Part shown: piece by piece, positions 4,576 through 13,670 of the stretch
Layout of the letters: each line of letters begins with the position of its first letter
Numbering within the stretch: the first letter of the stretch is position 1
Virus record (IMG/VR): IMGVR_UViG_2675903366_000007
From: a virus
Taxonomy: Duplodnaviria; Heunggongvirae; Uroviricota; Caudoviricetes
DNA length: 16,884 bases
Direction: 5' to 3' (one strand)
Notes under the pieces: model-generated
What the model was told of the DNA's origin: nothing
The model's input: only the letters and a program-made list of their open reading frames with translations
The model's database searches: none
Made by a program: the position numbers and the translations under genes

Positions 4576-5086
4576 ATGTACTCCAATGAAGAAGCCACCG
4601 ACATAGCCTCCTCCATTCATAGTGAAACTATTTTCATCTACCCAGTAATGAATTCTTTGAAGAGTCGAGATCAATACAACTCACTAATGGGGAGGCTTGT
4701 CTCACACGTGAAACAAGCCTCCTGTTTGATTTACTGGACAGTATAGGACTGCAGAATGCCTTCCTCACTCGAATAACATCAATTAAGGAGGTTTAACACG
4801 GGTCAGTAGTGGTATTGCGGCAGCCGCGAACGCGGCAGACTTTCGGGATTCGTGGGGGCATATGTACTCCAATGAAGAAACCAGCGAAATAGCCGCCTTC
4901 ATTCGTAGTAAACCTTCTTCATCTACGCAGTAATTAATTCTTTGAAGAGTCGAGATCAATACAACTCACTGATAGGAGAGGTTTGTCCAACACGTTGGAC
5001 AAGCCTCCCGTTTGATTTACTTGACACTATAGAAGGACAGAATGCCTTCCTCACTCGAATAACATCAATTAAGGAGGTTCAACATG
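4512..5086. repeat. Head-to-tail tandem duplication, two ~286-bp units (about 4512..4797 and 4798..5086), roughly 85-90% identical by eye
   Basis: Direct alignment of the two units at a 286-nt offset, for example acgggtc at 4512 and 4798 and gggggcatatgtactccaatgaagaa at 4569 and 4855. Each unit carries the HNH start codon region, a long hairpin and an AAGGAGGT motif. Confidence 0.75.
4793..4861 (-). pseudogene. Truncated duplicate of the HNH endonuclease 5' end (22 codons, then stop)
   Basis: The minus strand from ATG 4861 reads MPPRIPKVCRVRGCRNTTTDPC then TAA. This parallels the first 21 codons of the intact HNH gene, which starts 286 bp away at 4575. Confidence 0.6.
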
Positions 5087-5153
5087 TTTCATTCCACAAG
5101 TCATCAGTCTGTAATTATGGTAGCATCAGTTTGTGCCACATACCTTTTCCGCT

Positions 5154-5429
5154 TCACTTTGAGTATGATTCATTTCTACCTGACCGGTTCGCCTCTATCT
5201 TTCTAATCCCCGCTTTGTCAATATTGCATTGTCCCAACGCTGACAACAGACTCACATTCAACTCCAGACTGGCACCATACGTCAGCGGATTGGGTATAAA
5301 CGGTACAGGAGTATCAGAAGTCAGGCTGGCTGGCAGTGGTGCCACCGGAGTGCTCACGTAAACTGTCCGCGTACTTCCGCAACCGATCAGCAGCGGCAAC
5401 AGGCACAGGACGTGAAGCACAGTCATCAT
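5154..5429 (-). CDS. Rz1-like o-spanin (outer-membrane lipoprotein), overlapping Rz in another frame
   Basis: MMTVLHVLCLLPLLIGCGSTRTVYVSTPVAPLPASLTSDTPVPFIPNPL...: signal peptide with lipobox LIGC followed by a Pro-rich mature region. Starts inside Rz and extends past the Rz stop. The C-terminal extent is uncertain. Confidence 0.5.
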   Translation of the reverse strand: MMTVLHVLCLLPLLIGCGSTRTVYVSTPVAPLPASLTSDTPVPFIPNPLTYGASLELNVSLLSALGQCNIDKAGIRKIEANRSGRNESYSK

Positions 5430-5706
5430 CCGCAATGACCATTTTGATATCTTCCTGGGTTCTCTGTGACTCCAGTGCGATCTGCTGTTTTGCATGCTGG
5501 TTAGCCTCCAGAACTGTATTGAAGATTTGTAGTGATTGCAGGACGTTATTGGTAATGGCTGTTGCTGATTCAGCATTTCGTACAGTCTCATCAGCACGTT
5601 TCTTTTCGCGCTGATATTTGCTGTAGTAGTGGTTGGCAGACCAGATGAAAGAACCGATGACGGTAAAGAAGAATGCAGCGATAACCAGCTTATAGCTCAA
5701 CTTCAT
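5314..5706 (-). CDS. Rz-like i-spanin
   Basis: 130-aa ORF with an N-terminal TM segment (LVIAAFFFTVIGSFIWSA) and a charged, probably coiled-coil periplasmic part. Directly downstream of the lysozyme gene and overlapping its 3' end. Confidence 0.65.
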   Translation of the reverse strand: MKLSYKLVIAAFFFTVIGSFIWSANHYYSKYQREKKRADETVRNAESATAITNNVLQSLQIFNTVLEANQHAKQQIALESQRTQEDIKMVIADDDCASRPVPVAAADRLRKYADSLREHSGGTTASQPDF

Positions 5707-6166
5707 TTACCACCCCACCAGCCTCTTTAAACCGGGAAATCAGGTCACCGATTTTATGTTCATACTGACCGTAACCTGCACCAGGTAGCGACGCCCAGAT
5801 ATTGCTGCAACGGTCGATAGCCTGACGGATATCACCGCGATCAATCATCGTTAAAGCGCCACGCTCTTTAATCTGCTGTAATGCCACGGAGTCCTGGCTT
5901 CTGGGAGAGAAGTCTTTCAGCCCTAGCTGCTTGCGGTAGGCATCCCACCAACGGGAAAGAAGCTGGTAACGTCCGGCGGCTGTTGATTTGAGTTTCGGGT
6001 TTAGCGTGACAAGTTTGCGAGGATGATCGGAGTAATCAGTAAACAGTTCACCACCGACAATAACGTCATAACCGTGGTTACGTGTCGGTTGTCGCCCGTT
6101 ATCCGTTCCTTCTGACCATGCCACCATATCGAGGAAAGCTTTACGCTGGGAATTTAGTGCCTGCAT
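5690..6166 (-). CDS. R: Endolysin, lambda R-type lytic transglycosylase
   Basis: MQALNSQRKAFLDMVAWSEGTDNGRQPTRNHGYDVIVGGELFTDYSDHPRKLVTLNPKLKSTAAGRYQLLSRWWDAYRKQLGLKDF... is near-identical in my recollection to phage lambda R. Confidence 0.9.
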   Translation of the reverse strand: MQALNSQRKAFLDMVAWSEGTDNGRQPTRNHGYDVIVGGELFTDYSDHPRKLVTLNPKLKSTAAGRYQLLSRWWDAYRKQLGLKDFSPRSQDSVALQQIKERGALTMIDRGDIRQAIDRCSNIWASLPGAGYGQYEHKIGDLISRFKEAGGVVNEVEL

Positions 6167-6169
6167 AAA

Positions 6170-6496
6170 TTACTCCTTCGTGCTACCAAATTTGTTACCG
6201 ATTACTCGCATTGCAGCCCCACGAATAGCATCGACACCGATCAGCCCAACACCGCCACCAATGGCTACAGAAAGCGATTTAGGCCATCCGACATACTCAA
6301 GAGCGGATGCAAAGGTCAGCGTCAAAGCGCCACAGAGCAAAATCTCGAGCGTTTTTCGCTTCCAGCCACCACCACCGCCAAAATAGGCAATGCGCAAGCC
6401 AGCCATAACGATCGACATAATCACTGCGCCCAGCGGTGTGTCTCCACGCCACCAGCTCTGGACCAACTCCAGCCAGGTATTTGGGTTATGAGGCAT
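6170..6496 (-). CDS. Holin, lambda S-like (three TM segments)
   Basis: 108-aa ORF with three hydrophobic segments and a charged C-terminus, directly upstream of the lysozyme gene. The Gly-rich loop plus KRK motif resembles lambda S. Confidence 0.8.
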   Translation of the reverse strand: MPHNPNTWLELVQSWWRGDTPLGAVIMSIVMAGLRIAYFGGGGGWKRKTLEILLCGALTLTFASALEYVGWPKSLSVAIGGGVGLIGVDAIRGAAMRVIGNKFGSTKE

Positions 6497-6648
6497 TTGT
6501 AGTTATCTCTCACCTCGCCGATACAGGAGGTGCAAATTGAGGGAGTACCACGAACCGCAAATCAGAAGCGGAAACGTAAAAGAAGCCGAGCCAATGGATA
6601 AGTACTAGATAGACCAAGCCCAACGAATACCAAGGCCCAGAAACGACA

Positions 6649-6670
6649 AAACCCGCTCAATGGCGGGTTT
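6649..6670 (-). terminator. Candidate intrinsic terminator upstream of holin (tR'-like position) on the late strand
   Basis: Inverted repeat AAACCCGC (6649..6656) and GCGGGTTT (6663..6670) with a 6-nt loop. On the minus-strand RNA the stem is followed by UUUUGUCGUUUCU. Confidence 0.4.
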
Positions 6671-6715
6671 AAGCTGTGTGGCGAAGTAACCACTCTTAAC
6701 ACGATACAATAATTT

Positions 6716-6744
6716 TTGCGTACGCGTTAGCGCTTTTGTATATT
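6716..6744 (+). promoter_or_regulatory. Candidate sigma70 promoter for the plus-strand cargo cassette
   Basis: TTGCGT (6716..6721), 17-bp spacer, TATATT (6739..6744), about 30 nt upstream of ATG 6778. Confidence 0.3.
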
Positions 6745-6777
6745 CAGCTTAATCCTATGTATTTATGGAAAAATAAG

Positions 6778-7809
6778 ATGAGCAAGCGTGAAATCAAAAC
6801 TAAAAAAATAATCTATAAAGAAGTCACAATGTCAGGTGTGTCAAAGACGCTCCAGTCGATGCTAATGGAGCTGCTCAAAAAACACACTAAAGCAGATTCT
6901 CGCAAGGAAATGGTCAACCCAGGAGAGGAAGACTTATTCCGATTAATTAATAAACATGAAGAGTTCCAGGGAATGCTGTTTTGCCAGCTTGTTGCCTTCG
7001 AACCAGGCCATTCTCAACGCTATATACAGCTTAAAAATGATGCTGAATCTTATGAAATAAGATCCGTAACATCAGATGAACTTTCTAAAATGACTGTTGA
7101 AGAAGCTGAAGAAGCACGCACAGAGAGGGAACAGGTTGTGCGTGAGTTTATAGATTCAATTCTTTATTTCGGTGTATTTGGTAACAGCATCGTAGTAATG
7201 CAATCCAGATCTCTTACAACAAGAGAACTTGAAACACATCTGAAATGGTTACTTGGCTCTTTAAGCAATTACTTAGGCGCAGAAAACATCTTAAAAGTTT
7301 CCGATAAGCCCAAAGAAGAGATCATTGAGGAAGTTCTAAAACGACCTGTAAAATCAGTTTCTATAGGTGCCCCTGTAACTGCCGTTAACGAATTTAGTCA
7401 AGGAAGCAAAAGCCCAGGCTGGGTTCCCGCAGGAACTGCCTCTGAACTCCTTAAAGCTATGTTAGCAGAGAAATGGGAAAGCTTCTTACGTAGTAGCAAG
7501 CTTGAAGATTGTCTTGATGACGCTAATCTTGAAGTAACGCTGAAAATCACATACAAGAGGAAAACTTCTGATTCAGGAGAAAGGATGTTAAGAAATCTTG
7601 TTGACGCTACCAGACACTACCCGGATGATGACGTCGTTGTTGAAATGGTTGGTGGGACGCGTTTAACTGGTAAAGAGATTCGTTTATGGAATACTGTTAA
7701 ACTCACAACTTACAATAGCTTAATTGATGAACATGAACTATATGGCCAAATGCATGATTGGATGGTCGCTCTGATCAACAATGGAGAAATAGAAGAGACC
7801 GATGAATAG
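6778..7809 (+). CDS. Hypothetical soluble protein (~343 aa), cargo gene A; no family recognised
   Basis: Long uninterrupted ORF in an AT-rich block on the strand opposite all flanking phage genes. Start taken at ATG 6778 (MSKREIKTKK...); in-frame alternatives are ATG 6757 and the track's TTG 6736, which lies inside the putative promoter. Charged and largely hydrophilic, with no P-loop, HTH or nuclease motif that I can recognise. Confidence 0.7.
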   Translation: MSKREIKTKKIIYKEVTMSGVSKTLQSMLMELLKKHTKADSRKEMVNPGEEDLFRLINKHEEFQGMLFCQLVAFEPGHSQRYIQLKNDAESYEIRSVTSDELSKMTVEEAEEARTEREQVVREFIDSILYFGVFGNSIVVMQSRSLTTRELETHLKWLLGSLSNYLGAENILKVSDKPKEEIIEEVLKRPVKSVSIGAPVTAVNEFSQGSKSPGWVPAGTASELLKAMLAEKWESFLRSSKLEDCLDDANLEVTLKITYKRKTSDSGERMLRNLVDATRHYPDDDVVVEMVGGTRLTGKEIRLWNTVKLTTYNSLIDEHELYGQMHDWMVALINNGEIEETDE

Positions 7810-8341
7810 AGAGGCTGCTAAGTGCATATCCTACCAACAACCAAGTAGAGCATTCCACTTGGTTGTTGTAGTATTGCTTATGTCTACAGCCTGGTTTATC
7901 GCCAATAAGTACATCATTTTAACATCCATTCCTTGGGGCGTATTAACTATCCTCATCTTACCAATTGCAAGTAGCGCAACCCTGTTTCATAAGTTATCTG
8001 AAACCCAAAAAAACGTTGCTGAGGATTTATCTCGCAATGAACAAAGAAGGTTAACAAGGCTTATTAAAGAAAAAAGCCGGGCAACATTATTCATGCTTAC
8101 GCTACAAATTTCGATAATAATTTTTGTGGCATTGATTAGCCTTGGCAATGAGTCCTCTTTTGTTCAACAGCACATTCATACTATAAGTAAATTCGTTGTT
8201 TGTGCTTTGGTTTTTTCACTATACTCATTAATCCCTGTTTTACTAGGAGTAAAGGAAGTCATTGATTTTGAAGGGTTAATAAAAACACGAAAAACATTAA
8301 ATAAGCGTAAAAAATCTGCATTATCCAAGCTTGGGAAGTAA
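7802..8341 (+). CDS. Hypothetical integral membrane protein (~179 aa, four predicted TM segments), cargo gene B
   Basis: ATG 7802 overlaps the last codons of gene A by 8 nt, suggesting translational coupling. Four hydrophobic stretches: FHLVVVVLLMSTAWFIANKYIIL, IPWGVLTILILPIASSATLF, TLFMLTLQISIIIFVALISLG, ISKFVVCALVFSLYSLIPVLLGV. Lys-rich C-terminal tail. Confidence 0.7.
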   Translation: MNREAAKCISYQQPSRAFHLVVVVLLMSTAWFIANKYIILTSIPWGVLTILILPIASSATLFHKLSETQKNVAEDLSRNEQRRLTRLIKEKSRATLFMLTLQISIIIFVALISLGNESSFVQQHIHTISKFVVCALVFSLYSLIPVLLGVKEVIDFEGLIKTRKTLNKRKKSALSKLGK

Positions 8342-8353
8342 TCCAAGCTTGGG
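8323..8353. repeat. Two copies of ATCCAAGCTTGGG (each with the palindrome CCAAGCTTGG) separated by 5 nt, between the convergent gene B and Q
   Basis: Copies at 8323..8335 and 8341..8353. The first copy encodes the last codons of gene B (SKLGK then stop) and the second repeats them after the stop. The two palindromes can pair into a 10-bp hairpin. Confidence 0.55.
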
Positions 8354-8362
8354 TTAGCACTC

Positions 8363-8704
8363 TTAAACCATTCTCAGAACACCATCAATAAAACCTAAAG
8401 CAGTTTGCAATTCCTTTCTGATCGTACCATCTGAGCATTTCCGCTTCTTTGCAATTGTACGGAGCGAAACCCCAATAACAAAATGTGCGATTATCAGCTC
8501 ATATTCTTCAGGCCTATATTTACGCAACCGAGCCACACAACTGTCTATCATAATGCCTTCGTCATCATCACACTGAATCCGGGACTTTTTGCCATGAGGT
8601 AAAAGCCCCTTGAAGCCAGCGGCTACCGGTTGCCAGTCCACTCCGCTATTGTCTGAAGCAGCCCAAGCCCCCCAACGATCCATCACTTCATACATATCAC
8701 GCAT
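8363..8704 (-). CDS. Late-gene antiterminator Q (QuuD-like family)
   Basis: MRDMYEVMDRWGAWAASDNSGVDWQPVAAGFKGLL...SRIQCDDDEG...KKRKCSDGTIRKELQTALGFIDGVL matches the conserved pattern I recall for the DLP12 QuuD-type Q proteins. Start taken at ATG 8704 (GGAG 8 nt upstream). Confidence 0.7.
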   Translation of the reverse strand: MRDMYEVMDRWGAWAASDNSGVDWQPVAAGFKGLLPHGKKSRIQCDDDEGIMIDSCVARLRKYRPEEYELIIAHFVIGVSLRTIAKKRKCSDGTIRKELQTALGFIDGVLRMV

Positions 8705-8721
8705 CAACTTTCTCCACAAAA

Positions 8722-12778: not shown

Positions 12779-13282
12779 TTGCGCCCCCTTACCTCTGAAG
12801 AGTTCAGCGACGAATGAATAAGACGGGCAAGAAATGCCGCATCGTTAATTCGGTCATACAGACTTACTGCCAGCGGTGATTCAGCTTTTTCCAGCATGGG
12901 ATAAAGCTGCTGCAACCAGGCCTGATGAATTGATGAAATGTAGGAATAGAGAACGCTGGCGTTATGTGCAACGTCGCTCGGTACAGAGGGCTTTGAAAGC
13001 TGTTTCTCCATCTGGTTAAAGGCATTGATATATGCCTCTTTGAACTGGGCAGCACGTTTACCCGTGAAACCCATAGCAAGAAACGCAAAACCGTCGCGTG
13101 TGATTTGGTAGCAAGGAAGTTTGCGTCCTGTGCAATCAGTGTAATCACTCACCGAAAAATTGCGGGCAGTGAATGATGCTGAGCATTCAAGCGTGCGGAT
13201 CTTTTTCAGTACATCGTCATGACGTTTGGAGAAGAAGTTGGCAACAGCTAGGGATGAAGTAACAGCCTGACCATCAACGATG
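12775..13282 (-). CDS. Rha-family phage regulatory protein; 5' end interrupted by the assembly gap
   Basis: The track ORF 12775..13152 continues upstream in the same frame with no stop and no start codon as far as the N run: EIAIVDGQAVTSSLAVANFFSKRHDDVLKKIRTLECSASFTARNFS then VSDYTDCTGRKLPCYQITRDGFAFLAMGFTGKRAAQFKEAYINAFNQME. This is the classic Rha domain pattern. Confidence 0.7.
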
Positions 13283-13332
13283 GCAATTTCAGNNNNNNNN
13301 NNNNNNNNNNNNNNNNNNNNNNNNNNNNNNNN
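13283..13332. other. Assembly gap (run of 50 N)
   Basis: 50 consecutive N characters; the true length of missing sequence is unknown. Confidence 0.98.
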
Positions 13333-13670
13333 ATGGCAGAATCAATGTGTTGGTGGTCCATCACACTCAACAAAATCACGCCTGAATTTCCACAAAGGAC
13401 TAAAGCACTCATGCGGGTAGTCTTTGCGAAGATAGATAACACGCTGTGTTTCTGGTTCCCAACGAATAACATGAACATAGAGCCCTCTTCCGTCACGAAA
13501 CCAGCGGTTAAGTTCCTGCACAACTCGCCCCCCACAGTCAGGTAAAGTTCTCTGTGGTTACTTACAGCCAGGTGATTTGGTAATCTGCATTCACGCCGTA
13601 ACAACAGGTGTTCAGCGGCACTGACCACCAGCTGTTGCGACAAACGGTTATTTGCCGTTAAACTGTTCAT
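13333..13670 (-). CDS. Hypothetical protein, 3' end lost in the gap
   Basis: ATG 13670 overlaps the stop of the upstream cII-like gene (ATGA). The frame stays open to the gap. Composition is unremarkable, so confidence is low. Confidence 0.3.

Follow-up and report, generated by a model that had tools for sequence, protein, structure and literature searches.

The window examined here, a stretch of 16,884 nt from IMG/VR virus record IMGVR_UViG_2675903366_000007, is a lambdoid (P27/SfII-like) Escherichia coli prophage and carries, between the genes for the Q antiterminator and the holin, a cassette of two plus-strand genes, referred to in the following as gene A and gene B. The cassette probably encodes a lysogen-expressed abortive-infection (Abi), i.e., phage-exclusion, module of the RexAB type, in which a soluble sensor is paired with a membrane effector. 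Gene names in the window were taken from the 99.3%-identical prophage of strain FDAARGOS_144. The features of the cassette are as follows:

6778..7809, plus strand: gene A (343 aa), acidic and soluble protein, predicted to fold like RexA; putative sensor in the cytoplasm
7802..8341, plus strand: gene B (179 aa; open reading frame (ORF), PHROG 16807), inner-membrane protein with four predicted transmembrane (TM) helices, putative effector
7835..7868, plus strand: stable hairpin, lying 34 nt into gene B, with 15-nt arms (93% complementary) and a 4-nt loop
6716..6744, plus strand: candidate sigma-70 promoter TTGCGT-17 nt-TATATT (-35 at 6716-6721, -10 at 6739-6744), read from the sequence
8325-8334 and 8343-8352: duplicated palindrome CCAAGCTTGG, straddling the gene B stop codon and forming the right edge of the cassette

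The cassette and its two proteins

As had been described in an initial annotation of this DNA, the two plus-strand ORFs overlap by 8 nt (7802-7809) and run against their neighbors, all other genes between 439 and 14567 being located on the minus strand. The GC content of the block at 6700-8353 is 38.3% (39.8% for gene A, 35.7% for gene B, and 0.33-0.43 in 300-nt windows), compared with 0.50-0.60 in the adjacent windows, a mean of 53.2% in the left part of the window and ~50-58% for the prophage as such; the contrast with the flanks noted in the initial annotation is therefore real, whereas its figure of 32-37% is true of the 3' half of gene B only. The palindromic repeat at which the cassette was said to end is likewise present, CCAAGCTTGG occurring twice within 8325-8352, such that the repeat ends 10 nt before the stop codon of Q. 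A role of this palindrome as an intrinsic terminator is unsupported, as it lacks a T-run and is not canonical.

The conserved start of gene A is the ATG at 6778, in agreement with the RefSeq call, the PHROG and the N-termini of homologues, none of which supports the longest ORF (6736..7809), which begins with TTG. Its product, initially described as soluble, about 343 aa long and devoid of recognizable motifs, has no hydrophobic segment (maximum KD19 1.37; isoelectric point (pI) 5.3). Neither gene A nor gene B has a significant match in Pfam, NCBIfam or PADLOC 2.0, and in the PHROGs both proteins belong to families of 'unknown function'. A search of the PDB by sequence returned noise only (an alanyl-tRNA synthetase fragment and DARPins, at E-values of at least 0.08).

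The product of gene B has hydrophobic segments at approximately residues 17-35, 38-56, 96-114 and 132-150, as judged by hydropathy, bearing out the four helices and basic tail read initially. The segments are laid out as 2+2 around a central TM2-TM3 loop rich in lysine and arginine (K/R), an arrangement also seen in lambda RexB, Sbash gp31 and RexBpp, and the last 29 residues contain 10 K/R and make up a basic C-terminal helix with the character of a basic amphipathic tail, so that, by the positive-inside rule, both termini and the TM2-TM3 loop are predicted to be cytoplasmic. When 71 B proteins are compared, positions at which 80% or more of them agree lie mostly in the TM2-TM3 loop (residues 64-91) and also in the C-terminal tail, those of the loop being K64, E67, L76, E80, R82, R83, L84 and K91. 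In gp31 of the actinobacteriophage Sbash, the substitutions R70A and D73A in the corresponding TM2-TM3 loop abolish defense (PMC6426596).

The hairpin inside gene B is part of a 101-nt region (7780-7880) with a minimum free energy of -25.3 kcal/mol (z = -2.45), and orthologues with as little as about 50% protein identity retain its core, CCAAGT/ACTTGG. No compensatory changes were found among these orthologues, hence the hairpin has support from conservation only and not from covariation. It may tune translation of B relative to A and thereby set the A:B ratio, which is known to matter in lambda Rex.

Resemblance to RexAB and other two-gene systems

The structure of the gene A product was predicted by AlphaFold2 without templates (mean predicted local distance difference test (pLDDT) 71.8), and the model is confident at residues 1-180 and 300-335, with pLDDT values of about 75-94 for the split globular domain. 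When this model was compared with the PDB by Foldseek, a check proposed in the initial annotation, lambda RexA (8TWQ) ranked first (E 4.8e-5, probability 1.00), the next match having an E-value of 0.04. The alignment with 8TWQ comprises 164 residues, similar in size to the split globular domain of RexA (171 residues), and the order of secondary structure elements in the model, namely an N-terminal beta/alpha unit, an inserted beta/alpha domain, and a C-terminal strand with a long helix, is consistent with the split-domain topology of RexA. RdgC is a recombination-associated DNA-binding protein that forms a ring dimer around DNA; its fold match to gene A (PDB 2OWL) is much weaker than that of RexA, gene A has no match to the Pfam RdgC family, and RdgC is without a membrane partner. 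The AlphaFold2 model of gene B (pLDDT 77.5) consists of four long helices, and the fifth-ranked match in BFVD is a Sbash protein of 165 aa, the length of gp31 (probability 0.99, TM-score 0.53/0.57).

Like lambda RexA/RexB, the cassette is a two-gene prophage operon, in which a protein with the predicted RexA split-globular fold is followed by a 4-TM protein. Gene B shares with RexB the cytoplasmic placement predicted for its termini as well as the basic central loop, and many relatives of the pair stand directly behind cI in the same orientation, as in the lambda cI-rexA-rexB arrangement. However, RexA has 279 aa and a pI of 8.6 as opposed to 343 aa and 5.3 for gene A, RexB has 144 aa as opposed to 179 aa with a long basic C-terminal helix for gene B, and lambda rexAB lies in the immunity region whereas the copy in the window lies between Q and holin.

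The RexABpp system of Pseudomonas putida (PP_5643/PP_5644; 330 + 188 aa) is similar in that its RexA was assigned by fold and not through simple sequence comparison, its partner has four TM helices, and the pair is encoded by a prophage near a cI-like repressor. Defense, DNA binding and RexB-dependent toxicity were shown for RexABpp by experiment (Rosendahl et al. 2026, PMC12894663), whereas the A/B pair is known here from sequence and predicted structure. The sequences of PP_5643/PP_5644 were recovered from IMG/VR by means of a published primer sequence (the native start of PP_5643 being GTG) and correspond to the PADLOC candidate PDC-M53A/B. An enterobacterial member of the PDC-M53/RexABpp family exists in the serotype-converting Shigella phage SfII, where SfII_50/49 match PDC-M53A/B and SfII_49 is 37% identical to PP_5644.

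The Rex-like systems of actinobacteriophages (Sbash gp30/31, CarolAnn gp44/43, and Butters gp30/31) also consist of a soluble and a 4-TM protein encoded by overlapping genes; they are expressed in lysogens, and their function depends critically on the central cytoplasmic loop of the membrane protein. In Sbash, gp30/31 stands beside the lysis cassette, as the A/B pair does here, and the gene B model resembles a Sbash protein with the 165-aa length of gp31. These systems differ from the A/B pair in phylum and in having no sequence similarity to it, and Butters differs further in that its effector is the soluble and not the membrane protein.

Profile hidden Markov models (HMMs) did not reveal any sequence relationship to such systems. 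The RexA HMM (PF15969; PADLOC RexA) matched neither gene A at E<=1 nor any of 71 family members at E<=0.01, the positive control lambda RexA reaching 1e-97 (Pfam) and 9e-110 (PADLOC). In hhalign, a profile of 163 A sequences aligned to a profile of 33 RexA sequences with a probability of 0.4% (E 0.14), and single-sequence templates remained below 1%, although these alignments used neither secondary-structure scoring nor a PDB70 profile and an HHpred result could differ. The RexB HMM (PF15968; PADLOC RexB; positive control lambda RexB, 8.5e-92) did not match gene B, for which hhalign probabilities were 1.3% and 0.4%. The PDC-M53A/B HMMs matched neither A nor B (positive controls: PP_5643 8e-157, SfII_49 2.8e-54), the A/B HMMs in turn missed PP_5643/5644 and SfII_50/49, and A/B are unrelated in sequence to PP_5643/PP_5644 (no hmmsearch match, hhalign probability 0.1%). 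Sequence homology to lambda RexA/RexB, RexApp/Bpp, Sbash gp30/31 and SfII_50/49 was rejected on the results of hmmsearch, BLASTP and hhalign. The initial annotation had considered the likeness to RexAB as architectural only, which is correct as to the absence of sequence similarity, yet the predicted RexA fold of gene A goes further.

Kiwa (KwaA + KwaB) shares the two-gene, membrane-plus-soluble defense architecture. An identity with Kiwa was rejected, as no PADLOC KwaA/KwaB model matches and the gene order is, as noted initially, the reverse, with the soluble gene first and the membrane gene second; moreover, the gene A model resembles RexA, and KwaB was absent from both the PADLOC results and the PDB fold matches. 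Since neither the Kiwa nor the lambda-type RexAB HMMs match, the earlier suggestion of an undescribed family stands. Homology to a family without a role in defense was not found in Pfam, PADLOC, NCBIfam or the PDB sequence search.

The lambda RexA/RexB models likewise fail to match the experimentally validated Rex-like systems from Sbash and P. putida, hence the literature defines this kind of system through its fold and architecture (PMC12894663). In these terms, the gene A model has the RexA/RdgC-like fold of the soluble component, gene B is the adjacent four-TM partner of ~140-190 aa, the two form a conserved, co-oriented unit, and relatives show the prophage and lysogenic placement, 35 of 106 lying behind cI, with the present copy in the Q-holin slot and having only a candidate promoter. 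Judged by the predicted structures, the A/B pair is most likely a new and widespread sequence family of RexAB-type systems rather than a new kind of system.

Pairing, genomic settings and proposed mode of action

A word-index search retrieved 28 A clusters and 15 B clusters, and an exhaustive profile search extended the A family to 728 representative clusters at 50% identity, 234 of them with E<=1e-30. Over the 728 A-family clusters, the conservation of both proteins extends from 100% to as little as about 25-30% identity, which implies purifying selection. None of 71 diverse A relatives matches Pfam or PADLOC; one GenBank record of an Acinetobacter phage labels an A homologue 'DefenseFinder protein', and no paper mentioning these proteins or their PHROGs was found in the literature searched.

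Pairing was counted in 102 loci (17 GTDB genomes, 80 IMG/VR contigs, and 5 others). A B homologue follows A directly in about 97 of them, with an offset of -41 to +31 nt relative to the stop codon of A, and the paired B ORFs (160-225 aa) match the B HMM at E-values of 1e-6 to 1e-100; the neighborhood survey called for in the initial annotation hence shows a pair conserved as a unit. Among the five unpaired loci, four are at a contig end or have a disrupted A, and in one (L048) A is followed by no more than a 75-aa ORF. No third gene is conserved, the small ORFs upstream of A being unrelated between lineages. Prophages, satellites and Mu-like phages alike thus inherit A and B together.

Genomic context, counted in 106 loci, falls into several settings. 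Immediately downstream of a cI/S24 repressor gene, and in the same orientation, the pair is found in 35 loci, which represent 14 of the 21 clusters formed by the A sequences at 70% identity. The clearest layout of this type is that of Escherichia phage Perceval (CI, A homologue, 'transmembrane protein', Kil, Gam, Bet), and further examples come from an Acinetobacter phage and Providencia prophages. In 48 loci, nearly all from two enterobacterial lineages including that of the window, the pair lies between Q and holin, convergent with Q. Homologues are furthermore found in satellite-like IMG/VR contigs of 16-18 kb with a D5-type primase as well as capsid, protease and portal genes (L094-L098, ~5974-7519), in a Mu-like prophage (L100, 5953-7506), where they lie between the gene for the Mu F-like protein and that for the Mu I protease, by P2-type tail genes in the vicinity of smpB, and adjacent to the two genes of a NaeI restriction-modification system. 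The slots behind cI, and at the Q-late promoter facing away from late transcription, are sites of lysogeny-expressed accessory genes. The claim of the initial annotation that the pair is a sensor/effector defense or exclusion module is accordingly supported by the pairing, by the rexAB position behind cI in a third of the loci, and by the analogue in SfII.

In the Franconibacter prophage (L004), a HicB-like antitoxin gene stands beside the pair and a gene for an Acb2/Tad1-hairpin (anti-CBASS/Thoeris sponge-like) protein lies beyond the lysis genes (positions 2028-2321 and 5075-5482). RexABpp of P. putida likewise adjoins hicAB2.

The position behind cI could also be taken to mean that A mainly modulates the lysis-lysogeny switch or DNA transactions, with B only sequestering or tuning A and without any phage exclusion. 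In favor of this, lambda RexA stabilizes the lytic state independently of RexB (PMC11077077), gene A shares the RexA/RdgC fold according to its model, many relatives immediately follow cI, and the membrane partner in Butters only sequesters the soluble protein. However, in two large lineages, including that of the window, the pair lies well away from the immunity region, in a slot that unrelated cassettes occupy in turn, the satellite-like contigs and the Mu-like prophage have no lambda-type cI repressor in the flanks examined, the acidic nature of gene A is contrary to non-specific DNA binding, and the pairing with B is near-universal, all of which makes a pure switch function unlikely.

SieB genes are located near the pair in Providencia prophages. 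This, together with the membrane nature of B, the prophage origin of the pair and its orientation against late transcripts, could point to superinfection exclusion in the manner of SieA or Imm, in which B would actively block DNA entry or an early membrane step and A would be an accessory. No observation made here speaks for an entry block, sensing in the cytoplasm is favored by the RexA-fold partner and by the conserved B loop, which is predicted to be cytoplasmic and not periplasmic, and the closest validated analogues work through membrane damage and growth arrest, so that an entry block is quite improbable.

Several observations count against a RexAB-type exclusion module. As there is no sequence similarity to RexA, RexB, RexApp/Bpp or Sbash gp30/31 (hhalign probability 1.3% or lower), homology rests on predicted structure only. 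The middle domain of gene A (residues 180-300) is poorly modelled (pLDDT 53-69), hence its equivalence with the RexA dimerization domain is not established, and with a pI of 5.3 versus 8.6 for RexA, non-specific DNA binding may not be conserved. BFVD returned only weak matches for gene B (E 0.06 at best), the first 50 of which do not include lambda RexB. The candidate promoter is weak, and the pair in this window is not beside cI. Lastly, gene A is split by ISVsa5 in the bovine isolate E. coli OkiPb01677 (L118, 730-3099) and, independently, the B homologue of phage SfIV is truncated by IS1 (L114, 3501-4324); these insertions show that the pair is dispensable and possibly costly, yet this is also what would be expected for a costly Abi system.

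A model leading from a sensor to a membrane effector has been established in the case of lambda RexAB and has support in those of P. putida RexABpp and Sbash gp30/31. If the cassette works along these lines, the pair would be transcribed in the lysogen from its own weak sigma-70 promoter. Upon infection, A, probably as a dimer, would sense a phage-made cue, which could be a DNA-protein intermediate of replication or recombination, or a phage protein. Activated A would then engage B at its cytoplasmic loop or tail, B would oligomerize or open, and the membrane would be depolarized or permeabilized, such that growth and phage development stop. A bolder version of this reading, which we put forward tentatively and do not regard as the likelier outcome, is that A/B represents the largest, still unnamed gammaproteobacterial clade of a RexA-fold/4-TM superfamily that moves among cI-proximal, Q-late-promoter, satellite-like and Mu-like sites, and whose acidic sensor may have given up DNA binding in order to recognize a phage protein.

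RexAB was the first Abi system to be described, and after 70 years its trigger and mechanism are still unresolved. The count of described RexAB-like systems stands at only five (PMC12894663). The A/B family goes undetected by Pfam, NCBIfam and PADLOC 2.0. Its clusters number in the hundreds and its 4-TM partner is obligate; the family would provide many natural variants for the study of Rex-type sensing, in particular of the effector TM2-TM3 loop and of conserved sensor motifs, and its recognition is expected to improve the annotation of defense systems in E. coli, Shigella, Acinetobacter and Stx2a-converting phages. Should the superfamily reading be true, 'Rex' would be a widespread, sequence-hypervariable Abi class that present HMM-based tools fail to see almost entirely, and no longer a lambda curiosity plus four isolated analogues.

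The cargo slot between Q and the probable late promoter

The surroundings of the cassette in the window are as follows:

5690-6166, minus strand: endolysin
6170-6496, minus strand: holin
6500..6731, no strand assigned: conserved hotspot flank from holin to the cargo slot, holding the tR'-like terminator and the promoter -35
6670-6649, minus strand: tR'-like terminator, a strong hairpin followed by a T-run, just upstream of holin and inside the shared flank
8363-8719, minus strand: Q antiterminator

Further minus-strand genes of the window include those for portal, terminase, HNH, spanins, DUF968, KilA-N and RusA. A run of 40 N (masked or a gap) at 13293-13332 breaks the early region, hence ORF calls at about 13248-13670 are unreliable.

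The left flank (6500-6745, 246 nt) is present in 1160 of 5426 complete E. coli genomes, whereas the A/B cassette is found in only 14 of them, and sibling phages carry different plus-strand cargo at this position, in line with the Q-holin hotspot proposed in the initial annotation. The same flank occurs in phages SfII and SfIV, whatever cargo follows. Given the tR'-like terminator within it, the late promoter probably lies between cargo and holin, such that the slot would be the gap between Q and the late promoter; segment 6500-6745 is probably the late promoter/tR' region, with the cargo inserted between Q and its target promoter.

The flank also bears on the promoter of the cassette. The hexamers of the candidate promoter that had been proposed are present, with 3/6 (-35) and 5/6 (-10) matches to the consensus, but do not reach the threshold of a consensus scan. 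The -35 hexamer, TTGCGT, lies within the flank common to sibling prophages bearing other cargo, and a -10-like hexamer is found at the same spacing before unrelated cargo, namely TAATAT in strain PSUO2 and TAAGAT in phage SfII. The conserved -35 and the retained -10-like hexamer are circumstantial support for a slot promoter.

As the pair adjoins the lysis cassette, B is small and has several TM helices and a charged C-terminus, and some copies carry insertion sequences, A/B could be conceived of as a lysis-timing accessory (holin/antiholin-like), as a toxin-antitoxin addiction module, or as non-functional, hitch-hiking AT-rich DNA. Any of these is very improbable, considering the orientation opposite to late transcription, the occurrence of the same pair behind cI, in satellite-like contigs and beside a restriction-modification system, the purifying selection on both proteins, and the absence of any holin or toxin-antitoxin family match in Pfam, PADLOC, PHROGs and NCBIfam.

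In phage SfII (KC736978, L117, 2783-4397), SfII_50/SfII_49 are located in the same slot behind the same flank, hence the slot alternates between two sequence-unrelated RexA-fold + 4-TM cassettes, one of which belongs to a validated family. The slot of phage SfIV holds an A homologue with 32% identity to gene A, followed by a B homologue that IS1 interrupts. For P27/SfII-like lambdoid phages, the Q/late-promoter gap is here documented as an exchangeable slot for defense cargo with a shared upstream flank.

The identical cassette is present in the Stx2a-converting phages Stx2a_1447 and WGPS2. In the O157:H7 phage Stx2a_1447 (AP012536, L001, 7130-8693), it lies between Q and the methylase/tRNA/stx2AB region, i.e., just upstream of the toxin late operon and in the opposite orientation to that operon. 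In strain PSUO2 (NZ_CP011915, L116, 2779-4645), the same slot is occupied by a plus-strand cassette of three genes, encoding a 363-aa protein, a 105-aa protein with a STAS-like domain and a protein of 153 aa that is hydrophobic in a segment at its N-terminus; PADLOC has no match for any of the three proteins, and the cassette is a further candidate for defense cargo of this hotspot.

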